Shown piece by piece: positions 1-34,397 of a stretch of DNA of 64,000 nt. A model generated the notes under the pieces. It searched no databases. It was not told the origin of the DNA and saw nothing but the letters and a program-made list of their open reading frames with translations. The first letter of the stretch is position 1. Each line of letters opens with the position of its first letter. Made by a program: the position numbers and the translations under genes. Origin of the DNA: a bacterium (lineage in GTDB: Bacteria > Vulcanimicrobiota > JAZDOK01); contig JAZDOK010000001.1 in the NCBI GenBank assembly GCA_043798715.1, forward strand, positions 6,480 through 70,479, read 5' to 3'.

Positions 1-364
1 CCTCGAGTGGCGGTTTCATTCCTCTTTCTTCCGAAGGGATGATGGATGCCCGAAAAACGTATGTTGGGCCTGGATCAATAATAAGTTTACCGGTCTTATC
101 CCATAGGTTGATCATCCATACATTCGGTTCACTAACCACTACCAGTAAGTGGAGCTTCATGCCGGGATCCGGCAATTCTTCGCTTCTTCCGTATTTCTCC
201 CCCATTCTGTAAAGAATTTTCGGCTTTGCGCCAAATGAGTGTGGGTCAATACCGGGAGTAACATTTCTTGTAATGATTTTCATCATCGTGTTTGAAGACA
301 GCTGTGCCTGCGCGGCAACAGCTACCAATGCCAGTAGGCAGACTAAAATCAACGACTTTTTCAT
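1..364 (-). CDS. hypothetical secreted protein, partial (N-terminal ~121 aa; continues beyond window start)
   Basis: Reverse-complement ATG at 362-364 is preceded by an aaggaag RBS. The translation MKKSLILVCLLALVAVAAQAQ... shows a classic Sec signal peptide. The ORF has no stop in the window and is absent from the ORF track because it runs off the edge. Confidence 0.4.
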   Translation of the reverse strand, partial: MKKSLILVCLLALVAVAAQAQLSSNTMMKIITRNVTPGIDPHSFGAKPKILYRMGEKYGRSEELPDPGMKLHLLVVVSEPNVWMINLWDKTGKLIIDPGPTYVFRASIIPSEERGMKPPLE

Positions 365-683
365 TTCTCTTCCTTTCTGTCGATTAAAAAATAGAGGTGG
401 TCATTCCCCCCGAAATAGACGCCAGGCCATATTCTGCAGCCCCTGACTTCCTTTATTTATCAGCACCTTGCCCTGTTGATAGCATATAAAGCCCCCCCTT
501 GCCCCTCAAGAAATGCTCCATGACTTTAGGCTGTACATCTTCCCCACCTCAGCTTTTTCTTCAATATACTCTGGAAAATTCCTCCAAGCTCGAATACATT
601 GCCCTTCGTGAAGGAAAAGTAATCGGCTTGCAGAAATTCTCCCTGAATCTTTTGGAACCTGTTTTGCCCGTAAGGGGATTTTT

Positions 684-3185
684 TTGAAACTAACAGACGG
701 AAGATGCGGCCTTCTTAAGGGCCGTTTTGCCTCCTTCCCTGCCTGGAAGCGGGAGGGCCAGTATTTTGCTTCCACCGCGAAGGCCCTCGGCCCAAAGCCT
801 TGCCTGGACGAGGAGACCGCCCGCCATTTCGATGAGTTCCGCATCCTCTACGACACCGTCGTCAAAATACTCTTCAACTTTCGCCAGAGCGGGCACCCCG
901 GAGGGGCCATCTCGGTGGGGCCTCAGCTCATCGGGCTTTTCCTGGACACCCTGCGCTATGACATCAGCCGCCCTGAAAGCGAGGAGAACGACGTGGTGGG
1001 CCTGGCCTCGGGACACAAGGCCAACGGTCTCTATGCCATTCTCAGCCTCCTCTTCGAGGCGGTCAGGATGCGCGAGCCTTCGCTCCTCCCTGCGAATGCC
1101 ATTTTCTTTCACGACCTTCTGGGTTTCCGCCGCAACCGGACCTATCGCTCCCGCTTGGCGGACGCCCTCCACCCTTGCCCTCTTGACGGCCACCCCACTC
1201 CCGAGACTCCCTTTGTCAGGATAGCCTCCGGAGCCTCCGGCTACGCCGTCTCCCAGCTCCTGGGCCTGGCCCTGGCCTTAAGGGAGCGTTTCTCGGGGGA
1301 GCGCCCGCCATACGTATTCATTCTCGAAGGCGACGGCGCCTCGACCACGGGGCGCTTCCAGGAGGCCTGGCAGATCGCCCACAACCTGCGCTTGGGCAAC
1401 GTTCTCTTCCTGTACGATTACAACAACGCCTGTATAGATGAGGACCGGGTCGTCGGGACCTGCGACGGCGCCCGCCTTTTGGATGGGCACGTGGCCTCCT
1501 GGATTCCGGAGGAGCTGGCCCGGACGCACGGGGGAAACGTCGTCACCGTTGACGACGGCCATGATTTTGATCATGTCATCGCCGGCTTTGATCTTATGGG
1601 CCGCCTCCTCAAAAAAAGTCCGCGCTTCCCGGTCGGCGTCTTCCACACTATAAAAGGGAAAGGCTATGACCCGGCGGGCGGCGCCACCGGCCGCAAGTTC
1701 CACGGGGCCGGGCACATGATGGACAGCCCCGAATACTTCGCCTCGCAAAAAAAGTTCGAGAATTATTTCAATGCCACGCTCCCCCGGATGCCTGGAAATC
1801 CCGATCGGGACACCGTCGAGGAGTATTTCTTAAAAAGCCTCGATGCCGTGCGCGATACCCTTTGCAAAAGATCCGACCTCACCGATTTCGTCTTCGGTCG
1901 AATAAGGCAGGCCAAGAGACGCCTCCCCGGGAAGAGAAAAATTTCCTTGGCCGACGCCCGTCCACTCGTCGAATTCGTCCGGGAAAAGCCGCTTGATCCT
2001 CTCAATCCCTCTCAAGAGATCCTTGTTACGCCCGGCAAGGCCTCCTTCCGCAAGCAGTACGTCGAGATCCTCGGATATCTCCACCGCCTCACCAACGGCG
2101 CCCTCTGGGTCATCTCGGCCGATCTCCTCTCCTCTACCCTCCCCGACATCGCCGCGCACCTCGGCGGAGTGCCGGAGGGTGAACAGACCTCCCCCGAATT
2201 TTTTTACGGACCTGAGAGTTTCTACTACGGCGAGAAAAACCGCCAATCCCGCATCCTCCACGGCGGAGGAATAACCGAGGACGCCAATTCGGGCCTGGCG
2301 CTCGGGATCGGAGCTGAAGGTCATTATGCCGCCCTGGCCACCTCCTACGGCGCCTTCCAGTCCCTGGCCCACACGCATGTGCGCGTCGCCAACGGCCCCC
2401 TGGGATCCCCGGAAAGGCAGAAGCGCATCCCCGCGCAGATAGGCGCCTTCCACGCATCGCTCTGGACGGGGCCGGACGGGGTGCGCACTCATGCCGACCC
2501 GCAGGCCCTCTCCACCTGGCGGGAAAATTTTCCCTACGGTGGAGTCGTGACTATCCTCCCGATTGACCCGGCGGAGATATTCCCCCTGCTCCTGGCCGCT
2601 TACCGGGCCCGCCCCACCGCCATCATTCCCTTTATTCCCAGGCCTGACGGAATCTGTTTTGACCGGGAAAAGCTGGGATTTGCCCCGGCCGGCAACGCCG
2701 CCCGGGGAGGCTACGTCCTGCGCCCCGCGAAGGAAGGTGAAGTCCACGGGACGGTCGTGCTGCAGGGAGCCGGTGCGTCCAAAATCTTCATCGAGAGCGT
2801 CCTTCCGGAACTCGACCGCCGGTGGAACCTTTCCATCACCGCCATCACCAGCCACGAGCTCTTTCGGATGCAGCCGCCGGAGGAGCGGGACCGCGTCCTT
2901 CCCTTCCTGGACAAAGAGCGCGTACGGCGCAGTTGCGTGGCCATCACCGAGTTCACCGAGGGGACGATCCGCCCCTACGTGGATGAAATCGGCCTCCGCT
3001 ACTCCCTTTTTTCCTACAAGCCGCCGGATCAACTAGGAAAAGACGCCGACGAGCGAGAGAGCGTGGGACCCTACGGGAGCGGGGAGCCGGAGGAAATTTT
3101 CCGGGAGGCCCACCTCGATGCCGAGGAACAGTTGCGAGCGGTGAATGCCTATCTGGAGAATATCAACGCAGGAAAAAATCTCTGA
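684..3185 (+). CDS. transketolase-family thiamine-diphosphate-dependent enzyme (833 aa, atypically long; TTG start inferred)
   Basis: SGHPGG TPP-binding motif, GDGASTTG and the DGHD motif typical of transketolases are all present. There is no in-frame ATG near the 5' end, so the start at the TTG is uncertain. Confidence 0.55.
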   Translation: MKLTDGRCGLLKGRFASFPAWKREGQYFASTAKALGPKPCLDEETARHFDEFRILYDTVVKILFNFRQSGHPGGAISVGPQLIGLFLDTLRYDISRPESEENDVVGLASGHKANGLYAILSLLFEAVRMREPSLLPANAIFFHDLLGFRRNRTYRSRLADALHPCPLDGHPTPETPFVRIASGASGYAVSQLLGLALALRERFSGERPPYVFILEGDGASTTGRFQEAWQIAHNLRLGNVLFLYDYNNACIDEDRVVGTCDGARLLDGHVASWIPEELARTHGGNVVTVDDGHDFDHVIAGFDLMGRLLKKSPRFPVGVFHTIKGKGYDPAGGATGRKFHGAGHMMDSPEYFASQKKFENYFNATLPRMPGNPDRDTVEEYFLKSLDAVRDTLCKRSDLTDFVFGRIRQAKRRLPGKRKISLADARPLVEFVREKPLDPLNPSQEILVTPGKASFRKQYVEILGYLHRLTNGALWVISADLLSSTLPDIAAHLGGVPEGEQTSPEFFYGPESFYYGEKNRQSRILHGGGITEDANSGLALGIGAEGHYAALATSYGAFQSLAHTHVRVANGPLGSPERQKRIPAQIGAFHASLWTGPDGVRTHADPQALSTWRENFPYGGVVTILPIDPAEIFPLLLAAYRARPTAIIPFIPRPDGICFDREKLGFAPAGNAARGGYVLRPAKEGEVHGTVVLQGAGASKIFIESVLPELDRRWNLSITAITSHELFRMQPPEERDRVLPFLDKERVRRSCVAITEFTEGTIRPYVDEIGLRYSLFSYKPPDQLGKDADERESVGPYGSGEPEEIFREAHLDAEEQLRAVNAYLENINAGKNL

Positions 3186-3223
3186 AAGTCTAATTCTCAG
3201 GAAAAATGAAAGGAGAAATAAAG

Positions 3224-3790
3224 ATGGGTAAAATCGTAAAGACTATTGTACTGGGGGTTCTTCTTGTAATTGCGGCGGGAGTTCTGCTTCCGGCGCCGGC
3301 CAGCACAAAAGGAAAGGGGACAAAGATGAAAAACAGAATCGCGGTCTTTGAGACCAACATGGGAACGTTTGAGGCGGAACTTTTTGAGGACAAGGCGCCC
3401 GTCACGACCGGAAACTTTATTTCGCTTATTGGGAAAGGCTTCTACAACGGAGTCATTTTTCATCGGGTGATTGACGGTTTTATGATCCAGGGCGGAGATC
3501 CCACCGGCACCGGCATGGGCGGCCCCGGCTACACCATCAAGGACGAATTCGGGCCGGGCCTCAAACATGATTCGAAGGGCATCCTCTCGATGGCCAACGC
3601 CGGCCCCGATACAGGCGGCAGCCAGTTTTTCATCACCCTGGCCCCCACCCCACATCTGAACGGGAAGCACGCCATCTTCGGAAAGGTCATCTCGGGGATG
3701 AACGTGGTTGAGACGATAGGCAAGGTCAAGACCGGACCCAATGACCGCCCCGTCAAGGACGTGGTGATGAAAAAAGTCACCCTCAAGTAA
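3224..3790 (+). CDS. peptidyl-prolyl cis-trans isomerase, cyclophilin type, with N-terminal signal/anchor
   Basis: Cyclophilin core [32 protein letters not shown]...HAIFGKV. An aaaggag RBS lies 8 nt upstream of the ATG at 3224. The N-terminus [23 protein letters not shown] is hydrophobic. Confidence 0.85.
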
Positions 3791-3830
3791 ATATAAAAAA
3801 ATCCCTTCATAAACCGCAGATTGCGCAGAA

Positions 3831-3873
3831 CAAAAGGGGAGGAGGGGGACACCCCCTCCTCCCCTTTTGTTTT
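3831..3873. terminator. bidirectional rho-independent terminator between convergent PPIase and HD-GYP genes
   Basis: Perfect 13-bp inverted repeat GGGGAGGAGGGGG-ACA-CCCCCTCCTCCCC flanked by CAAAA upstream and TTTTGTTTT downstream. Confidence 0.7.
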
Positions 3874-3911
3874 ACAGAGTTTGGATCGCCCGGGATGCCC
3901 TCCGGGAACTT

Positions 3912-6900
3912 TCAAGAGGCGACTTGTTTCTCCACCAGCGCCAGGAATCGATCCACCAGTTCGGGATCAAATTGGCTGCCGGCGCCCTTCCTCAATTCTC
4001 TGGCGGCCATGTTAAGGGGAATCCCCTTGCGATACGACCGATCGGAAATCATAGCATCCCAGGTATCCGTAATGCTGATGATGCGGGCAGCCAGTGGAAT
4101 GTTTTCTCCGCTGAGCCCGTCCGGGTAGCCCTCTCCATCCCAGCGTTCGTGGTGACCCCGCACCGTCGGCAGGATAGGCCGAAGCGATGGGATTGGCCGG
4201 AGTATCTCTTCCCCTATAATCGGGTGCTGCTTGATAATCCCGTATTCTTCCTCGGTGAGCACGGTAGTCTTATTCAGAATTTCTTTGGGGATCTCCAACT
4301 TTCCGATATCATGAAAAGCACTGCACTGGGTCAGATCGACGTCCTCCAGGAAGAGAGCCAGCCGGTCCTGCTCCTCAGAGGAGTAGCGGGAGGGGGCTAC
4401 CTGGGTTTCACCGATATCGTGCAGTAGTGCGCCTTCCTCAATCAGGCGCAGATCCTTTTCGTCCGTGACGCCGATCTCCGCCGCCAGGGAGACCGATAGA
4501 TCGCTCACCCGGGTGGAGTGTTCAAAGGCGTCGTCATTGTTGGCCTTGAGCATGAGGGCCAACATCTTGGCTGCGGACCGCTCACCGGTCACATCGTCCT
4601 TGTAGGATTTGCGGAGTATCACTTCAATGCAGGTAGTGGCCAGACGGGAGGCCTGCTGACTGTGCTTTAATGGAGCCTGCCTGCTGAAATACTCCAACTG
4701 CGCGGCATCTTTCATGCACTTCTGGATCGTGGCTTCCTTGGCGGTTTCCAAAATATTCTGGTGTGGGCTCTCCCCCAACTGCTGCTTTTTAAGTTGATTG
4801 AGGATGTATTCCGATTGGAAAGTGTAATACCGATCGCGGCCGCTCCCCTGGCCGAAGCCGCTATGCCCGCCTTTTTCGTCAGCCGGTGTCTCCGAAGTTC
4901 TTGAAACCTCGACGATGAGGGAGCGGCTCTGAGAAAAATCGAGCGTCCTGGCATTGGACTTGGAGGTGATTTTCTCGGCTAAAGTATCCATCTCCCCCAC
5001 GGAGAAGGAGACATAACGAAAGTCCCGCGTACCGGTACGGACAGGTTCCTTCTGGCCGGCCTGAAGCACGTGAGCCCGGGCGGCCGCCTCACCGGAGCGT
5101 CCTTCCTTTTCATAGGAAGAATCGGATGAAACCATGCTCTTTTTGACGAAGGCAGTCTGAACTATTGGAGGAGGCGGGGCCTCCTGAAATGAAGAAAAAG
5201 GCGGAGTCCGAGAGCTCTCATGGGCCGCCAGGAGCACCGCTCCAATACTTCCCGCCTCGGCGACCGGCGCCTTCTGAGCCTGAAAAGAAGCCTGGGTAAG
5301 ACCTTCTATATCATGAGTTTCGACATCCGCGATGTTCAAGACGCCAAAGTTCGACTGGGCGCCCTCCGCCTCCGCGGAAGGAGCCCCATCCGATTCTTCC
5401 CCGACTGCGGCCCAATTTAACTCTGCATCCCGCTCCCTGCTTTTTTTGGCGTCCTTTGGGACGTATTCAGCGGCGAGCTGAGCCATCATCGGGAGATGAA
5501 GATCCGGCTTTGCGCGGGCCTCCTCATGATGCTGGATGACCGTTGAAACAAAAGCCTGTTCCTCGGCCTGCCGCGCATCTTCCACGACAGACGAAGAAGG
5601 CTGAGTGCTTTCCGCCTGAAAAGCCTGAACCTCGCTCCCGGCGGCGGGGGAAAGATAGCGGGAAATATCCCGGCGATTGAGGGAAGGGGAAGCCGAACCT
5701 GCCTCCTCAGCTTTGTCGGGCGCCTCCTTCTTGAGCGGCTTGTCGGTTTTTTCCTCCATGGAAGAAGAGGATATCACTCTGGCCTGCTGGTTAGCCTGGG
5801 GCTTAAGCAAAAGCTGGGCTTCCAGGGTCTCCCTGGCTGAAAGGCTCTGAGGTTCCTGCTTTGGAGGAGGTTCTGATTTCGCAGTTTCCTGGGGTTTGGG
5901 CGCCTCATCCCTGAGCGGCTTCGGCGGCTCCGGAAGAGCAGGCCGGGCCTGGATCTTAGGCGGTGATATTTCGGCATCACCTGTTTTGAGATTTTTCTCC
6001 CCGACTGCCGGCGGGGGAGCGGATGCGGCCCGGGTTACGGATCTGTTCAGCGACATTCCCCCCCCGGGCGATGCAGGAGGCGTCGGCCTTGTGCCTAAAA
6101 CATTCGCCCGCAGAGGCGACTGAACCTGATTCCTGTTAAGTGGCTGGAACAGATCCTGTCCGGATTCTCCTTTTGAGGAAGCGTTAGTATCCTTCCCGTC
6201 TCTGGTCGCAAGAGATTCCTTTTCCATATTAATTTTATTGAGGCTGGCCAGGAGAACCTGTGAAACCTCCGGCTGAAAATTCATCGGAAAGCCGGACTTG
6301 GCCGGTGACGCCTGTACCGGGGTGGACGATAGAGATGCATTCGCGACGGAACCGCCATCCGCCGCCGGTTTCCCGGGCGGGGGAGAAGACGCTGTGGTCC
6401 TGGACCCAGTCAATGGAGGAGAAGACATCTTTGGGGTTGTCGGCAAGGCGGCGCCAGAGGAAAAAGCGGAGCTTGTCATGGACAACGGTTTCTGAGGCGA
6501 AGACTCCGCCCTGGATGAAGACTCCCCGCTTAAAACAGGTGGGCTTCTTTTCGCGGGGGACGCCTCGGCCTTGTCCATCTTTATATCAGGACGGCGCGCA
6601 GGGAGTGAATCCGAGCCTGCTTTGCTTAAGACAGGGGGCTCCTTCTTAGCCGGCGAAGCGCTCTTTTCCGCCGGAGGAGCCTCGGCTTTGCTCATCTTTA
6701 TTTCAGAACGGAGGGAAGGAACTTCCTTCCCTGTCTTGACTTCCGCCTTTTTTGAAGAAGTTCCGTCTTCCCTGGCAATTTCAGCCGCGCTTTTTGCCTT
6801 CTCCGGAGAGCTCTTCGCCTCCGGAGCGGAAAAGCCGAAAGTCCTCGAAAGGGATTGGAAGCGATCAGCAATCTTCTGATTGATGGCGATGAGATAGGGA

Positions 6901-18744: not shown

Positions 18745-20580
18745 TCATCTGTAGTCCCCTATCACCTCGAAGGCGGCCCAGTAGAAGGGATTGGCATATT
18801 TTTTATCCTTATGAAGAAGCGAAAGCTGGGCGTTGCGAAGGGCTTCGGCCTTGCTCCCTTTCCCGCTTGCCAGCTCCTTGTAGAACTCCACCATGATCTC
18901 CTTTGTCTCGCGGGAGGGAACGCTCCAGAGGGAAAGACACACACTAGATGTTCCCGCGTAAAAAAGTGCCGTCGAAAAGCCAACCATCCCTTCCCCGCCT
19001 TTCACCCGGCCCAAACCCGTCTGGCAGGCGGACAGGGTTATGAGATCCGCATCAAGATCCATCGAAAGAAAGTCCTCGACTTTAAGAAAGCCCGGGGAGT
19101 TCTCCCCCGTCAGGGCGATGCACGAAAGCCAGGGATTTACCGCATCCACCAGACCGTGGGTGGAGAAGAGGATATAACGGTAAGACTTCATATCGGGTGA
19201 TTTGGCCCTCTCCTCAGTGGCCGCCGGACCGGCATAAACAACGGACGGCTTGTCTGGCGATTTCAAGGAAGGGCTTTCCACCAGGGCGTAATCCGGGAAT
19301 AACGTGGCAATGCTCTCCGCCTCAGCTTTCGTATCGGGCAGAGGCACCAGGTTAAGGCCGCTGTCTTTGTAATAGGCGGAAAGATTAAATCCGCCCCGAG
19401 TGACGAGTTCCGAATCCTCCACCGCGACAGCTTTCCCTTTTTCTTTCTGGTCAGCAGGACCGAATACGGGATCGGCAAAGGCGACGAGTTTCTTTTCCCG
19501 CTTCCAGCGGGATCCCGCCGTTGGCGGCTGAGTGGCGCTTCTTTCTGCGTCTCTTCCCTTGGCCTGGAGCCGGATGGTATCCAGAAGCGCCAGGGAGGGA
19601 ACATAACTTACTGCATAATCCTCCACCAGGAAGCGGCAGTCGCTGTAATCCGCTGGAGTTCCGGCTCCGGAACGGGAGCCGAGAATAAGGGCGTTGAAGG
19701 GAAGATAGGATAAAGTCCCATCCGGGACGACGAGAAGATGCTTGACGCCCTTCAGCAGGCTCCTTGCTTCTTTCGGGATGAGTAAATCGGCGAGAAAATT
19801 GCCCACTTTGATGTTGATCTCAGGAGACGAAGAAAGGTCTCCCTTCTCCATCGGCGCTCTATATAGGCGGATTAACCCTTCCAGCCCGATTGATGATTTA
19901 TCCTTGTCAAAACGGGCTGGCAATATTTTGTTGGCCACCTCTTCATCCATCCCGGCCATATCCCTGGGGAGCTTAGACGCAACAGCGATACGGAAAGCCT
20001 GAATGGTATCCGACTTCAGGACAAAGAGAATGCTTTCTTCCGGCAGGACTACATATTCCAAAACAGCAGTATCCACAGGAATGTCTTTCTGGATTTCACT
20101 GGCTTTCTTGAAATTCGGCTTCTGATATTTCCCGATGAGGGATTTTTTTATCTCGTATTCTATCTGGTTTCTCCGAAGCTCAAGCTCCTCTATTTTCTTC
20201 CTGATTTCCTCTTTTTGGGCGCCTGTCAATGATAATTCCCTGGCGTGTAAATCAGAGATCTGCTTTTGCAGGCTCCCATCTTCAACTAAAAGTCCAGCCG
20301 GGGCTTTTTCCTTCAGATTCGCATTTCTCTCCGAAAGCAGATCCAGGGTTGTCCGGGCCTTTCCCGCTTCGGAGAAATGGAAGGCCGCTTCGAGATCCGC
20401 CTTTTCAGGCTCTTTGGCAGAGGCCCAGGCTGATATTTCGGGTTGAGAAAGAGCCTCCTTTTTTAGTGAAAGGCTGACAAGAAATCTTGAAAGGTAGGAA
20501 TAAACCTGGGAAGGCTCCTCGAATACCCCCATTTGGGCCTCTTTCCCCAGAACAAGTCCTCCTTTTTCTTCTGCTAATTC
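18745..20580. repeat. about 1.8 kb direct repeat (copy 1) shared by the 3' halves of the two CHAT genes
   Basis: The encoded proteins are near-identical from GVFEEPSQVYSY… to the C-terminus. The second copy lies at about 21948-23800. Boundaries are approximate. Confidence 0.7.
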
Positions 20581-28928: not shown

Positions 28929-31013
28929 GTGAACTTCGTCGAACGGATCCTTCTGATCGAAGATAATCCACTGGTACTCAGGCTGTGGAAGGCCCAGCTC
29001 CGAAAAATGCACTTTGAGGTCAGCACGGCCATCAACGGCTACGACGGGCTGAACAAAGCGCTGCTCGAAAAGCCGGCCCTCATCCTGCTCGACTCGGTGA
29101 TGCCCGAACTGGACGGTTTCGACTTCCTCATGAAACTCCGCGCCAATCCGGCCCTGGCCGCCATCCCCGTAATTATCCTCTCTAATTTTAACTTTTCGGA
29201 GGACATCGAGCGCGCCCGGGAACTCGGGGCCGCCGATTATCTTCTGAAATACGAGCTGACCCCGGCGAAACTTTTCGATACTATCAACACCGTCCTGAAC
29301 CTGAAAAAAGAGGCGCCATCTTGTCCCCCCGGAGATCCCCTTGACCAGATGCTCCTGGACGCCGCCATCCTGGACCCGCAGGAATTGCAGGAGGCCCTGA
29401 AGGCCTCCAGTGCCCAACCTCTGCCCATGATCGAAACCATCGCGACCCTGGACTTTTTGGAACCCCCGGATAAATACCATTTCCTTGAACTTGCCTACCG
29501 GACGGATTTCGTCAGAATATCGGACTACACCGTCTCCCCCGAAGCGCTGGCCCTTATCCCCAAGAAGGCGGCGCTCGAGTGGAAGATCATACCGATCTCT
29601 TTAAAATCCTCCCGCCTCATGGTCGCCATGGTGGATCCAGGCGACATAGCCGCCCTTGACTTCGTGCGGCAGCTCACGGGAAAGGAAGTGCGGGCGGTCT
29701 ATGCCACCCGGGAGGACATAGACAAATCCCTTATCCTCTACTACGGCTCCCCCGACCTTCTGAACCAGCTCCGGAAGAACCTCATGATAGAGACCGCGGA
29801 GGACGAGAGCTGCCGGACTTTCAGCGACGCCTCTAAAATAATCCAGGACCAGGCCCCCGTGGTGGAACTCATGGACGTGCTAATCGTCAAGGCCCTTGAT
29901 GAGCTGGCCAGCGACATCCACCTCGAGCCGGCGGAGGAGGGGGAGATCATCCGCCTCAGGGTGGACGGTGTGCTTCACGACGTACAGACCCTTCCCAGGA
30001 GTATAGAGCCGGCCCTGGCCACCAGAGTGAAGATTATGGCCGGGATGAACATATCCGAGCGCCGCCTGCCTCAGGACGGCCGCTTCCAGATCCGGATGAA
30101 CGAGGAGACGGTGGATTTCAGGGTCTCCAGCATCCCGACTATCTACGGGGAAAAAATCGTGCTTCGGCTCCTCCGCCACCAGGGAGCGCTGGCAACCCTC
30201 GAGGGCCTCGGCTTCGATGACGCGGCCCTCGCCGAATACCGCGCGATGGTCCGCCGGCCCTATGGCATGGTCATCCTGACCGGTCCCACCGGCAGCGGCA
30301 AGACTACAACCCTCTACTCCACCCTCAATTATCTGAAGTCCCGCGACGTCAATATTATCAGCATCGAAGACCCGGTGGAATACCGCATCAGCGGTATAAA
30401 CCAGATTCAGGTGCACCCCAGGATCGGCCTCACCTTCGCCACCGCCCTCCGCTCCATCCTGCGCCAGGATCCCAATATCATCCTGGTGGGGGAAATCCGG
30501 GACTATGAGACCGCAATACTGGCCGTCCAGGCCGCCCTCACCGGACACCTGGTGCTGACCACCCTTCATACCAATGACGCCCCGAGCGCTTTCATCCGCC
30601 TGGTGGACCTGGGGGTACCGCCATTCCTGGTCGCCTCCACCATTAACGGGGTGGTCGCCCAGCGCCTCATGCGCTGCATCTGCTCCGATTGCCGCCGGGA
30701 ACAGGATTTGAGCGATGAGGAGATTGCGCGTCTGGGGGCGGAATACACGCCGGGAATCCGCTTCCAGAATGGAGCCGGCTGCACCTCCTGCCACCGCACC
30801 GGCTACCTGGGAAGAACGGCTGTCTTTGAGGTGCTGCCGCTCTCCAAAAATATCCGGACTTCCATCCAGGATCGTATGAACGCCGACTCCATGCGCGAAA
30901 CAGCCCGCATTGAGGGCATGAAGACCCTGCGGGAGGCGGCCTGGGAAAAGGTCAAGGCGGGATTGAGCACCCTGGAGGAAATGTGGCGGGTGACGCTGGA
31001 GGAGGATAATTGA
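28929..31013 (+). CDS. response-regulator receiver domain fused to MshEN-like domain and GspE/PilB-family secretion ATPase
   Basis: REC domain (ILLIEDNPLVLRL…LILLDSVMPELDGFDF…LLK). An MshEN-like c-di-GMP-binding motif LDQMLLDAAILDPQELQEAL follows. The GspE N2 domain, Walker A GPTGSGKTTT, Asp/His boxes and a tetra-Cys Zn motif (CSDC…CTSC) are present. GTG start. Confidence 0.8.
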   Translation: MNFVERILLIEDNPLVLRLWKAQLRKMHFEVSTAINGYDGLNKALLEKPALILLDSVMPELDGFDFLMKLRANPALAAIPVIILSNFNFSEDIERARELGAADYLLKYELTPAKLFDTINTVLNLKKEAPSCPPGDPLDQMLLDAAILDPQELQEALKASSAQPLPMIETIATLDFLEPPDKYHFLELAYRTDFVRISDYTVSPEALALIPKKAALEWKIIPISLKSSRLMVAMVDPGDIAALDFVRQLTGKEVRAVYATREDIDKSLILYYGSPDLLNQLRKNLMIETAEDESCRTFSDASKIIQDQAPVVELMDVLIVKALDELASDIHLEPAEEGEIIRLRVDGVLHDVQTLPRSIEPALATRVKIMAGMNISERRLPQDGRFQIRMNEETVDFRVSSIPTIYGEKIVLRLLRHQGALATLEGLGFDDAALAEYRAMVRRPYGMVILTGPTGSGKTTTLYSTLNYLKSRDVNIISIEDPVEYRISGINQIQVHPRIGLTFATALRSILRQDPNIILVGEIRDYETAILAVQAALTGHLVLTTLHTNDAPSAFIRLVDLGVPPFLVASTINGVVAQRLMRCICSDCRREQDLSDEEIARLGAEYTPGIRFQNGAGCTSCHRTGYLGRTAVFEVLPLSKNIRTSIQDRMNADSMRETARIEGMKTLREAAWEKVKAGLSTLEEMWRVTLEEDN

Positions 31014-31014
31014 T

Positions 31015-31419
31015 ATGGAACCAAAGATTTTTTTTCTGATCGTCTGCCGGGAGGTCCTGCAGAGCGTGGACGACGCGAGGCAAATCGGCTGCATTCATAT
31101 CTATGATACCCTCTATGCCTCAAATTTTCCTCATACCATTCCCAAGATGACCTTCGTGGCCCGCTACGGCCTGGGGCAGGGCACCTTCACCCACCACTTC
31201 GAGATCCACGACCAGGGGCGCCTTCTCTATAAAGCGCCCCCCACGGAATTTATCCTGCCCAGCGAATTCGATTCTGCAACCGACGTTTTCACCCTGGACG
31301 ACATAGCCATCGAAAGCGCCGGAATCTACTGGATAAAATCCTGCATCAACGGGGTCGAGGCTGCCCGAACTCCCCTCCTGGTAACCTTCCTTCCGGAATC
31401 CGGTGAAGATCGTGCCTGA
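31015..31419 (+). CDS. hypothetical protein (134 aa), translationally coupled to the upstream ATPase
   Basis: TGATATGG stop/start overlap with the GspE-like gene. There are no recognisable motifs. It is in the same frame as the downstream MTase ORF, separated by one TGA. Confidence 0.45.
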   Translation: MEPKIFFLIVCREVLQSVDDARQIGCIHIYDTLYASNFPHTIPKMTFVARYGLGQGTFTHHFEIHDQGRLLYKAPPTEFILPSEFDSATDVFTLDDIAIESAGIYWIKSCINGVEAARTPLLVTFLPESGEDRA

Positions 31420-31440
31420 GGCCGGACCCATTTTCGAAAG

Positions 31441-34146
31441 TTGGGACTTTCCGCCTTGCCTGACCGGCAGATAAGCGCGCGGAGCGCCTTCGATTCAGAG
31501 CGCGTCACCAAGCGCTTCTACAACCGCTTCAAGACGGAACACGGCGTCTTCCTCGGGTTCATTCGGGGCATCCCGGATGAGGAGTTTTCCCGCCGGTATG
31601 CCTCCATTCTGCTCAACCGCCTCATGTTCATCTACTTCATCCAGCAGAAGGGCTTCCTGAACGGCGACGTCCACTACCTGCGCACCCGCCTGGAAGAGTG
31701 CCGGAAAAAGAAAAAGAATGTCTTTTACTCCTCCTTTCTACTGCCGCTTTTCTTCGATGGTTTCGCCAGAAGAGAAGCGGAGCGCCCGGCTGAGACCAAC
31801 CGCCTCCTCGGGCGGGTGCCATATTTGAACGGAGGCCTCTTTCTGCGCCACACGATCGAAGAAGAATACGGCTCCAACATCCGAATCGAGGATGCGGCTT
31901 TCGGGAAGCTCTTTGAATTCTTCGATCAATACCGGTGGCGCCTGGACGAGCGGCCGCCCGGGCAAGATGACGAGCTCAACCCCGACGTGCTCGGCTGCAT
32001 CTTCGAGAAATATATCAGCCAGAAACAGATGGGGGCCTATTACACCGGGGAGGACATCACCGGTTACATCGGCAGGAACACCATCGTTCCTCATCTTTTC
32101 GACGCCGCCCGAAAAAAATATCCGGCCGCTTTCGAAGGAGAGGCATCCGTTTTAAGGCATCTCCGGGCCGACCCCGACCGCTACCTCTTCGACGCCTTCA
32201 AATTCGGCGCGGACCTTCCCCTTCCCGAAGAGATCGCGGCGGGACTTTCGGATGTCTCCAGGCGCACGGGATGGAACCGCCCGGCACCCGAAGCATACGC
32301 CCTCCCCACCGAGATCTGGCGCGAGGCGGCCGCCAGAAGGAAGCGCTGCGAAGAGGTGCGGGGAAAACTCGCCGGAGGCGAAGTCCGCTCCATCAACGAT
32401 CTCATCACCTGCAACCTGGACCTCCGCCGTTTTGCGCAGGATGCCATCGAGCGTTGCGAGGGGCCCGAAATTTTACGCGCCTTCTGGCACGCCATCCGGG
32501 AAGTCACCGTTCTCGATCCCGCCTGCGGCTCCGGCGCCTTCCTCTTTGCGGCCCTCAATATCCTGGAGCCCTTATACGAGGCGTGCCTCGGCCGCATGCA
32601 GTTTTTCGTGGAGGAAGATGCGCATTCCGGGAAAAAGAGCCGACCCGAAAAAACAAGCGACTTCAAGAAAATACTCGATCTGGTCAAAACCCATCCCAAC
32701 CGGCACTGTTTTATTCTAAAATCCATCATCACCGGCAACCTCTTCGGCGTGGACATCATGGATGAGGCGGTGGAAACCTGCAAACTGCGCCTCTTCCTGA
32801 AACTCGCGGCCCAGGCGGAGCGGGCGGAGGATATCGGGCCCCTGCCCGACGTTGATTTTAACATCCGCGCCGGAAACTCGCTGGTGGGATTTGCCGCCCC
32901 GGAGGGACTCAAACAATCTCCTAAAGAGGATCTCGACAGGCGTTTGAGGGGGCTTAAAGACGAGCTGAACCGGGACCTGGCGAAAGAATACCAAGTGGAT
33001 CTTTCAAAGCCCGAGGCCTATGAGGCGTGGCTGGCCTCCCACAAGCCTTTTCATTGGGTTGCCGAATTTTACGGCGTCCTGAAATCCGGCGGATTCGACG
33101 TCATAATAGGAAACCCGCCGTACGTGGAAACCGGGAATGTTCCCGATTACAACGTGCGTGGGTTTGCCACGGAGGATTGCGGGGATCTTTATGCCCTTAT
33201 GATGGAGCGGTCAAGTCAATTGCTGTCCCCTGGCGGTTTCATGGGGATGATCGTCCCCGTTTCCATAACGAGTACCGACGGATTCGACAGCCTTCGCCGA
33301 TGCCTCATAAAAACGGAACACGCCTGCTGGTGCCTAAGTTTCGCCGAACGCCCCTCGAAGCTCTTCACCGGAGTTGAGAAGCGGCTGACAATCTGGTTGA
33401 TGAGCAACAGGCCGGCAGATGAACGGCTGTTTTTGTCGAATTATCGCCGTTGGTTTTCTGAAGAGCGGGGCAACCTGTTTTCAAACATCCTTTTCATTGC
33501 CGGGAAAAATTTGCCGCATCTGGCGGGATCTTCCATCCCCAAGGTTGCGCGACCGGCTGAGATTCGGATTCTCGGGAAGCTCTCAAAACAGGCCCGGCTG
33601 GGCTCGTTTCTCCTTAAGGACTCGCCCAATATCATTTACTATACGCGGAAAGTACGCTACTTCGTCCAATTCCTTGATTTCATACCCGGGATTGCCGATG
33701 CTGAAGGTCATCGCCTGGAACCCTCTGAACTTAAGATGCTCCGCTTCTCTTCTCCCGAACAGCGGGATGCCGCCCTGGCTTTACTTAACTCCGGGCTTTT
33801 CTACTGGTTTTTCTCGGCCTACTCCGATGTGCGAAATGTCAACCGGCGCGAGATCGGGGCCTTTCCATGCTCCCTTGATAAAATGAACCGCAACGTCGTC
33901 AAAGAGCTTCGGCATTTGTGCCAAACACTGATGGCGGACTTCAGGAAGCATTCGAAGATGCTGACGAACAACTATGGAAGTCATGGTCAACTCACCATCC
34001 AGACCTTCCAGCCAAGATTGAGCAAGCCGATCATGGACGAGATCGATCGGGTCCTGGCGAGACACTACGGCCTCACTGACGAGGAACTCGATTTCATCAT
34101 CAACTGCGACATCAAATACCGCATGGGGGACGCCATTTTTTCCTGA
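31441..34146 (+). CDS. N6-adenine DNA methyltransferase, Eco57I/PglX-like (gamma-class), no nuclease domain; start codon uncertain
   Basis: AdoMet motif I VLDPACGSGAFLFAALN and motif IV IIGNPPYV, with ~300 aa of C-terminal TRD-like sequence. The N-terminal helical region has the F-NRF/LMFIYFIQQKGFL motif shared by PglX, type IIG and ISP MTase modules. There is no in-frame ATG before residue ~60, and the ORF track uses the TTG at 31441. Confidence 0.75.
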   Translation: MGLSALPDRQISARSAFDSERVTKRFYNRFKTEHGVFLGFIRGIPDEEFSRRYASILLNRLMFIYFIQQKGFLNGDVHYLRTRLEECRKKKKNVFYSSFLLPLFFDGFARREAERPAETNRLLGRVPYLNGGLFLRHTIEEEYGSNIRIEDAAFGKLFEFFDQYRWRLDERPPGQDDELNPDVLGCIFEKYISQKQMGAYYTGEDITGYIGRNTIVPHLFDAARKKYPAAFEGEASVLRHLRADPDRYLFDAFKFGADLPLPEEIAAGLSDVSRRTGWNRPAPEAYALPTEIWREAAARRKRCEEVRGKLAGGEVRSINDLITCNLDLRRFAQDAIERCEGPEILRAFWHAIREVTVLDPACGSGAFLFAALNILEPLYEACLGRMQFFVEEDAHSGKKSRPEKTSDFKKILDLVKTHPNRHCFILKSIITGNLFGVDIMDEAVETCKLRLFLKLAAQAERAEDIGPLPDVDFNIRAGNSLVGFAAPEGLKQSPKEDLDRRLRGLKDELNRDLAKEYQVDLSKPEAYEAWLASHKPFHWVAEFYGVLKSGGFDVIIGNPPYVETGNVPDYNVRGFATEDCGDLYALMMERSSQLLSPGGFMGMIVPVSITSTDGFDSLRRCLIKTEHACWCLSFAERPSKLFTGVEKRLTIWLMSNRPADERLFLSNYRRWFSEERGNLFSNILFIAGKNLPHLAGSSIPKVARPAEIRILGKLSKQARLGSFLLKDSPNIIYYTRKVRYFVQFLDFIPGIADAEGHRLEPSELKMLRFSSPEQRDAALALLNSGLFYWFFSAYSDVRNVNRREIGAFPCSLDKMNRNVVKELRHLCQTLMADFRKHSKMLTNNYGSHGQLTIQTFQPRLSKPIMDEIDRVLARHYGLTDEELDFIINCDIKYRMGDAIFS

Positions 34147-34262
34147 AAATCGGATCCAAACGTTAACAATTTGGAAACACAACACCCTTTACAGCGACCC
34201 CGGCCTGTGGCATAATACGATCAAGTTATCGGTGTTGGTAAGGTGTTGGCTAAATTGGGAGA

Positions 34263-34290
34263 CCACGGCAATTTGCCGTGGTTTTTCAAT
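34263..34290 (+). terminator. rho-independent terminator
   Basis: Perfect 22-nt palindrome ACCACGGCAAATTTGCCGTGGT followed by TTTTCAATTTT. It lies ~115 nt downstream of the MTase stop. Confidence 0.55.
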
Positions 34291-34397
34291 TTTATGGAAG
34301 GTTGAGCACGCAGAATTAGAATTATGCCTAACAGGGTAAAAACTCTCACGTCAGATGGATCAAAAACGGGGAGCACTCCAAGGCGGAGTGATTGACT

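Follow-up and report, generated by a model that had tools for sequence, protein, structure and literature searches.

Positions 28929-34146 of the 64-kb window (by which we mean the whole stretch of DNA that was analyzed) hold three co-directional open reading frames (ORFs) on the forward strand, encoding an ATPase of the PilB/GspE family fused to a receiver domain, a small DUF6941 protein, and an N6-adenine DNA methyltransferase (MTase). A first-pass annotation had described the three genes, as the ORF list bears out, and had proposed that they were a regulated epigenetic or defense module or, alternatively, a chance juxtaposition. We found that the ATPase-DUF6941-MTase triad is not a conserved module. 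The locus was probably put together stepwise, by insertion of a fragment of an MTase gene from a different, restriction-type system behind an unrelated pair of genes headed by that for the ATPase.

The three genes were found together in only a few close relatives. A metagenome contig (L001) whose ATPase is 96.5% identical to that of the window has the same six-gene order as the window up to the MTase gene. A second contig (L002, Logan SRR22388057) retains the upstream region, the DUF6941 gene, and the start of the truncated MTase gene, and has a clean deletion equivalent to window positions 28907-30996, which removes the ATPase gene. Four other relatives (L003-L006) have the ATPase (73-87% identical) and DUF6941 (67-80% identical) and no MTase. 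The MTase gene was seen only in the window, L001, and L002, among which DUF6941 identity is 93-99%, and more distant orthologs of the ATPase had neither neighbor. The module proposed in the first-pass annotation was to fall if the triad was not conserved in other loci. This is what we found, and the comparison of loci supports the chance juxtaposition that had been offered as the alternative.

The MTase segment is a ~2.7-kb indel, bounded by the DUF6941 stop codon on the left and a conserved non-coding element on the right. We identified it as an indel because the sequence that follows the DUF6941 stop within 0-9 nt in L003-L006 (GATCCAAACGTTAAC...) is the same as that following the MTase stop in the window and in L001. 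The pentamer CCTGA is present at both junctions, once with the DUF6941 stop (31415-31419) and once with the MTase stop (34142-34146), and constitutes a 5-bp microhomology flanking the insert. In alignments, the left junction spans 31415-31458, with a short non-homologous linker between CCTGA and the first homologous MTase codons. By parsimony, we infer that the MTase was gained rather than lost.

The MTase gene of the window, judged by comparison with its homologs, has been cut down from a longer gene. It encodes a gamma-class N6-adenine MTase, as had been recognized from the window alone: motif I (DPACGSGAF) is upstream of motif IV (NPPY, within GNPPY), the target recognition domain (TRD) is C-terminal, and the protein matches Eco57I (E 3.8e-26) and MmeI_Mtase (E 6e-7) in Pfam. 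The PADLOC model PDLC03628 (REase_MTase_IIG) also matches the protein (E 6e-283), with an alignment that begins only at position 152 of the 1100 in the profile. The N-terminal domain of the family, possibly a nuclease in full-length relatives, is missing. The first-pass annotation had described an MTase without an endonuclease domain. Among the best 120 homologs, only the window MTase and P0002 (88% identical) are ~895 aa long. The other ~118, which are 55-66% identical to the window MTase, are mostly 1080-1140 aa, with a few of 954-1064 aa and one of 1191 aa.

Two parts of the family are missing from the window MTase and its two nearest relatives: a domain of ~150 aa at the N terminus and, internally, a segment of ~44 aa. 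Aligned to the full-length protein P0005, the missing parts are residues 1-146 and 648-691, the latter containing two family-invariant residues. Homology to the full-length proteins starts at the residues A-L-P-D, at a conserved TTG codon and at about residue 146 of P0005. AlphaFold modeling of the N-terminal 200 residues (pLDDT 89.5) places this position where an alpha/beta domain gives way to a helical region. The C-terminal ~300 aa, comprising the TRD, align to the homologs without gaps. Apart from M.TaqI (E 2e-5), a sequence search of the PDB with full-length P0005 gave nothing more than a weak match to 8c45.

The conserved start of the MTase ORF is a TTG at 31456, common to the window and both relatives, giving a protein of 896 aa (31456-34146). 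The ORF described earlier is present, but its length of 901 aa and its 21-bp distance from DUF6941 apply only if translation begins at TTG 31441, which is CTG in both relatives; from the conserved TTG the gap is 36 nt. We found no convincing Shine-Dalgarno (SD) sequence before the TTG.

Full-length members of the parent family are tied to a different partner, a gene for an HKD(PLD)-nuclease/SNF2-helicase. We examined the context of the family in 80 metagenomic loci (L090-L169), of which subsets of 77, 58, and 53 could be tested for one or another feature. In 75 of 77 loci, the N-terminal domain adjoined the MTase without interruption, and the HKD(PLD)-SNF2 gene was directly upstream of the full-length MTase in 52 of 58 loci by a strict distance rule, or 56 of 58 if overlapping gene ends were allowed. 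A DprA-like gene followed the MTase in 30 of 53. The same arrangement was present in two annotated contexts (L089 and the contig of P0016), with a ~1130-aa HKD(PLD)+SNF2 helicase immediately upstream of the MTase and a DprA-like gene downstream. The helicase of the family matches the PADLOC candidate 'HKD+Snf2' (E 6e-53) and reaches 144 bits with the DrmD model, versus a cutoff of 610. No HKD-SNF2, N-terminal domain, or DprA-like sequences were detected by tblastn (E<=1) in the window, L001, or L002. The first-pass annotation had also held that the module would be in doubt if relatives of the MTase were found beside conventional restriction-modification (R-M) or BREX genes. The partner that was found, HKD-SNF2, is of a restriction type.

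The parent family includes a protein that has been studied in Synechocystis PCC 6803. The plasmid pSYSX carries the same pair (locus L173, 43696-51129): Slr6050 is 48% identical to the window MTase (window residues 13-896 versus Slr6050 residues 152-1095), and a nearby 'helicase-related protein' shares 51% identity with the helicase of L089. The name M.Ssp6803IV refers to Slr6050, to which the motif GAm6AGGC was tentatively assigned by elimination and by a match in REBASE, and a knockout of slr6050 could not be segregated (PMC6105098). Members of the family appear to be real adenine MTases, and the pairing of HKD-SNF2 with a ~1100-aa MTase suggests a two-component, ATP-dependent restriction system. 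The failure of slr6050 to segregate would be expected if a cognate restriction activity exists, and would be explained if the coupled genes are a true two-gene restriction system. Because the MTase is almost always coupled to an HKD-SNF2 gene, the 'type IIG' (single-chain) label given to the parent family by PADLOC and REBASE may be wrong. Our literature searches, within the paper collection that was available to them, returned no paper describing a pair of HKD-SNF2 and an MmeI/Eco57I-type MTase. A separate instance of decay in this family was seen in L094 (positions 1-4183), in which the HKD-SNF2 match ends at about residue 1050 and the MTase match begins 17 nt later and only from residue ~233 of the full-length protein onward.

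The description of the window MTase that best fits these comparisons is that of a truncated orphan belonging to the Slr6050 family. It shares with Slr6050 the Eco57I-type catalytic core and the C-terminal TRD, but Slr6050 is 1100 aa long and has the N-terminal domain and the internal segment that the window protein lacks. On pSYSX, slr6050 is separated from the HKD-SNF2 helicase gene upstream of it by two genes, one small and hypothetical and the other encoding a VapC toxin; the window MTase gene has no such neighbors. By orthology the window MTase belongs to the HKD-SNF2 + MTase operon, and the upstream helicase and the N-terminal ~150-aa domain of an intact operon are absent.

The arrangement does not correspond to any R-M, BREX, or DISARM layout, as had been noted before, and the defining components of each were checked and found wanting. 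Type IIG/IIL enzymes (MmeI, BpuSI, DrdV, and Eco57I) have in common with the window MTase the Eco57I/MmeI_Mtase domains, a helical region before the MTase domain, and a C-terminal TRD. The window MTase has the core and the TRD of a type IIG enzyme without a nuclease domain in the same polypeptide, and its family is tied to a separate HKD-SNF2 protein that a true single-chain IIG enzyme does not need. For BREX, the best score with an NCBIfam PglX model was 72 bits versus a cutoff of 500, and there is no PglZ or BrxC gene in the window. For DISARM class 1, the DrmMI model matched with E 4e-23 versus 6e-283 for the IIG-labeled model, and the window contains no DrmA, DrmB, DrmC, DrmD, helicase, DUF1998, or PLD genes. 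Hma/BREX-related (BR) systems consist of a DUF499 ATPase, a Swi2/Snf2 helicase, and an N6-MTase of the DUF1156 type (PMC12839542). The window MTase is of the Eco57I/MmeI type and not of the DUF1156 type, and no DUF499 ATPase or helicase gene is found in the window. The parent-family operon resembles both DISARM class 1 (the DrmD SNF2 helicase and the DrmMI MTase) and Hma/BR in pairing a helicase, here HKD-SNF2, with an N6-adenine MTase (PMC12839542). However, the DrmD and DrmMI models match the parent family weakly, far below their cutoffs, the annotated parent-family loci have no DrmA, DrmB, or DUF499 ATPase, and the window has a fragment of the MTase only.

The shortened MTase gene has been maintained by purifying selection. 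Compared to L001, the MTase has a dN of 0.060, a dS of 0.210, and a dN/dS of 0.286 (bootstrap confidence interval, 0.22-0.38). This departs from neutrality (p ~1e-17), and dN/dS is below 1 in each of the helical, catalytic, and TRD thirds. In the catalytic and TRD half (P0005 residue 721 to the end), all 42 of the invariant and all 68 of the near-invariant residues are kept. In the helical and motif-I half, 99 of 107 invariant residues are kept. The GC content at third codon positions is 0.70, similar to that of the host. The pattern of conservation suggests that catalysis and recognition have been maintained in the parts that serve them, and that constraint is relaxed in those that probably communicated with the lost N-terminal domain and partner. 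Taking these features together, the window MTase is probably a retained orphan adenine MTase that is predicted to be active. It is like other orphan MTases derived from degraded R-M systems in having no restriction partner, in being under purifying selection, and in its host-like composition. It differs from them in that the MTase itself has been shortened and lies downstream of unrelated genes, from which read-through would reach it. We predict its activity from the residues that are kept.

The element downstream of the MTase gene (34153-34295, forward strand) was defined by tblastx, alignment, promoter scan, and folding. L001 and L003-L006 all have it, and in the relatives that have no MTase it is directly after DUF6941. 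Judging from this placement, it is the original downstream neighbor of DUF6941 and predates the MTase insertion. The element contains a promoter-like sequence with an extended -10 (TTTACA-17-CATAAT; 34188-34216) that has 10 of 12 matches in the promoter scan. Its hexamers are invariant and the spacer varies across the relatives. A putative small RNA (sRNA) region of ~70 nt follows, with two repeats of GGUGUUGG (34231-34238 and 34242-34249), and then a terminator hairpin (34252-34292) with a core stem at 34263-34281 and a T-tract at 34282-34286. The first-pass annotation had interpreted the hairpin as a strong terminator closing a three-gene operon. The hairpin is real, but its core stem starts 117 nt past the MTase stop and it is part of the separate promoter-plus-terminator element. 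The terminator folds with an energy of -29.5 kcal/mol (z -6.1), with one compensatory pair among four sequences. Searches of Rfam with the whole window and with the region after the MTase gene gave no family, only sub-threshold chance matches.

There is no terminator between the DUF6941 and MTase genes. We propose that the MTase gene is transcribed by read-through from upstream because no terminator precedes it, and its operon-like appearance would likewise be due to its having been dropped into a read-through position, with no terminator after DUF6941.

A motif in the non-coding element also occurs upstream of the ATPase gene. The motif, centered on GTTAAC, is at 34162-34173 in the element, and a motif search found it as GTTAACGATTTG at 28757-28768 (forward strand), in the spacer between the ATPase gene and the divergently transcribed gene upstream of it. 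The pattern GTTAACnATTTG was matched only at these two places in the window (28757 and 34162), a count that was reached in 7 of 100 shuffles and thus has weak statistical support. The motif at 28757 is kept in L001 and L002, and is present as GTTAACAAATTG in L003; the copy at 34162 is likewise conserved in relatives. The pair of motifs may be a site for a regulator shared by the ATPase gene and the sRNA-like promoter.

The ATPase of the window is an orphan without adjacent pilus or type II secretion system (T2SS) genes. The protein (694 aa, from a GTG start; 28929-31013, forward strand) has the receiver-MshEN-GspE/PilB domain order that was described previously, with Pfam matches to Response_reg (residues 7-118; E 5e-21), MshEN/T2SSE_N (190-275), and T2SSE (306-686). 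As read from the sequence, the receiver has kept the acidic pair E11-D12, the acceptor D55 (in LLDSVMP), the S in IILSN, and the K in YLLKY, and the Walker A motif of the ATPase is GPTGSGKTT. The scores with the NCBIfam equivalog models were below the cutoffs for both PilB (572 versus 675.65 bits) and GspE (551 versus 630.25 bits), and the protein belongs to neither equivalog. It shares with the PilB, GspE, and MshE ATPases the full T2SSE core, including Walker A and B, the Asp and His boxes, and the tetracysteine motif, and the N1 (MshEN/T2SSE_N) domain. It differs from them in its extra N-terminal receiver, its sub-cutoff scores, the lack of the MshEN motif, and the lack of pilus or T2SS neighbors. 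The dN/dS of the ATPase gene versus L001 is 0.15.

Binding of cyclic di-GMP (c-di-GMP) by the ATPase had been raised as a possibility in the first-pass annotation. The receptor motif of MshEN domains for c-di-GMP is RLGxx(L/V/I)(L/V/I)xxG(L/V/I)(L/V/I)xxxxLxxxLxxQ. A regular-expression search for this motif gave no match in the ATPase, and in the closest candidate segment, PLDQMLLDAAILDPQELQEALKAS, neither the R nor the Q nor either of the two G residues is present. We rejected c-di-GMP binding because the motif is absent.

Orthologs of the ATPase in more distant bacteria are solitary genes. In L170, L171 (an Armatimonadetes metagenome-assembled genome), and L172 ('Ca. Xenobiia'), receiver-PilB orthologs are 63%, 53%, and 45% identical to the ATPase, respectively, and there was no DUF6941 (by hmmsearch), no MTase, and no pilus gene within 8 kb. 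Pfam searches for PilC/GspF, pilin, PilT, and secretin genes found none in the 64-kb window, extending the earlier observation that pilin, PilC, and PilT genes are not nearby, and none was present within 8 kb of the three orthologs. A scan of genome contigs with the ATPase for close relatives gave only generic PilB genes at 39-45% identity that have no receiver, and these were set aside.

The ORF for a 134-aa protein of no known function that had been listed between the other two (31015-31419, forward strand) is a real gene, and its product belongs to Pfam family DUF6941 (PF22091; E 2.4e-8, 34.8 bits versus a gathering cutoff of 27). The ATPase and DUF6941 genes were thought to overlap by 4 bp. 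They do not: the sequence is TGA-T-ATG, with the ATPase stop at 31011-31013, the start of DUF6941 at 31015, and a spacer of 1 nt. A strong SD sequence (GGAGGAGGA, 30998-31006) precedes DUF6941 within the 3' end of the ATPase gene. The protein is an all-beta sandwich, described as small and cytoplasmic. HMMER identified 49 relatives, of which ~25 are standalone proteins of 120-180 aa. A search with the fold gave generic Ig-like sandwiches and no functional lead, and two distant DUF6941 loci (L087 and L088, both on short contigs) have no PilB gene upstream. DUF6941 and the MTase ORF share a reading frame in which the only stop between them is TGA 31417-31419, so that read-through of this codon would yield a fusion protein; a common frame is expected by accident in one of three cases.

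Based on these comparisons, we propose the following history. The receiver-fused PilB/GspE-type ATPase would be an old and usually solitary gene in a group of uncultured bacteria. DUF6941 would have been added 1 nt past its stop in the immediate clade of the window, followed by the element with the promoter, small RNA, and terminator. A foreign MTase gene would then have contributed a 2.7-kb internal piece, inserted between the DUF6941 stop and the element in the sub-clade comprising the window, L001, and L002. The likely donor is a gene for a ~1100-aa Eco57I/MmeI-type N6-adenine MTase, in an operon with the HKD(PLD)-nuclease/SNF2-helicase and often a DprA-like protein. The fragment would have lost the N-terminal ~150-aa domain, the ~44-aa segment, and the helicase-nuclease partner, and kept the catalytic core and the TRD. 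The orphan MTase would now be transcribed passively by read-through from ATPase-DUF6941, be weakly translated from its TTG, and methylate a single asymmetric motif; it would take no part in restriction and would not be connected functionally to the ATPase. The loss of the ATPase gene in L002 would be a later event. If this is correct, the adjacency of the three genes arose by insertion and R-M decay and is ordinary, rather than a sign of a new regulated defense or epigenetic system. Perhaps worth more are two by-products: a parent MTase family that is possibly mislabeled, and a conserved, unannotated sRNA-like element that shares a motif with the promoter region of the ATPase gene.

Several observations weigh against this history. 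Only 64 kb of the genome was seen, and the helicase-nuclease partner or pilus genes may lie elsewhere. The direction of the gain rests on parsimony over about seven loci. L002 is an automatically assembled Logan contig, and the absence of its ATPase gene could reflect variation within the population or an error of assembly. The dN/dS of the MTase (0.29) exceeds that of its neighbors (0.04-0.18). The helical/motif-I half has substitutions at eight invariant positions, most of which are shared by L001, and two further invariant residues are within the internal deletion. The activity of the MTase could be impaired by these losses and substitutions. Its expression is also uncertain because the start is a TTG with no recognizable SD sequence.

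These last points bear on whether the MTase ORF is a non-functional remnant that is being lost, with the open frame and a dN/dS below 1 reflecting a recent loss of function. Such a remnant would account for the missing N-terminal domain and conserved internal segment with its invariant residues, the eight substitutions in the N-terminal half, a dN/dS that is the highest among the syntenic genes, and the poor start signals, including the unconserved TTG 31441. We nevertheless consider it unlikely: the frame of 896 codons has remained open in two genomes separated by a dS of 0.21, dN/dS is 0.22-0.38 in every region (overall p 1e-17), all of the invariant and near-invariant catalytic and TRD residues are kept, and the truncation is exactly at a domain boundary. 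A different objection concerns the direction of change. Recombination between the flanking CCTGA direct repeats would excise the segment cleanly, so an MTase that was ancestral at the locus might have been precisely deleted in the lineages of L003-L006. This would require either that the window clade branches deeply or that identical deletions took place independently at least twice (in L003-L005 and in L006). Moreover, the ATPase orthologs at 45-63% identity are also without the MTase, and the family of which this gene is a piece has its native context in other surroundings. We regard an ancestral MTase as improbable, and the triad is not conserved under either direction.

The last alternatives give the adjacency a function. 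In one, the three genes are a functional module in which the ATPase, under phosphorelay control, would use the small protein as an intermediary to regulate or power an MTase with an epigenetic or defense role. The tight co-directional spacing with no terminator between the genes, the retention of the arrangement in L001, and the purifying selection on the MTase would all fit. Yet the triad is confined to one narrow sub-clade, in which L002 has DUF6941-MTase without the ATPase; L003-L006 have ATPase-DUF6941 without the MTase; the ATPase is solitary farther out; and the MTase family has another, strongly conserved partner in 56 of 58 loci. PADLOC, whose use had been suggested in the first-pass annotation, found nothing defense-like in the ATPase, DUF6941, or the neighboring genes. 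A module of this kind is very improbable. We give a small chance to a weaker form of functional connection, in which a domesticated MTase is made only when the receiver-controlled ATPase operon is on, or as a DUF6941-MTase fusion by occasional read-through of TGA 31417-31419. If this were true, adenine methylation would be signal-dependent, and epigenetic heterogeneity would follow.

The rest of the window contains housekeeping genes, including those for AlaRS, HisRS, PdxST, Tmk, HolB, RF1, PrmC, and PBP1. Synteny with every relative ends right after the sRNA-like terminator (at ~34310 in the window, and from 12830 in L001, 4390 in L003, and 1330 in L006 onward). Beyond the break there is an alpha/beta hydrolase gene in the window, genes for 808-aa and 378-aa proteins of unknown function in L001, and different genes in each of L003 and L006. 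The break resembles a rearrangement hotspot. PADLOC detected nothing in the neighboring genes or in the extra downstream genes of L001, and there was no recognizable defense island.

Two features upstream of the ATPase gene are conserved with the locus. Divergent from the ATPase gene, on the reverse strand, is a gene for a Gly/Ala-rich protein (27056-28747) that is possibly membrane-associated and is conserved in L001-L003, with a conserved start that gives a protein of 533 aa (27056-28657). It matched no family in Pfam, NCBIfam, or PADLOC. Farther upstream are tandem genes for paralogous TPR-CHAT proteins of 1035 and 1111 aa (18745-21852 and 21948-25283), beside a gene for a CsgG-like/TPR lipoprotein (25420-26967). 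The TPR-CHAT and CsgG-like genes are syntenic in L001 and L002 and have a GC content of 0.48-0.50, versus 0.56-0.62 in their neighbors.

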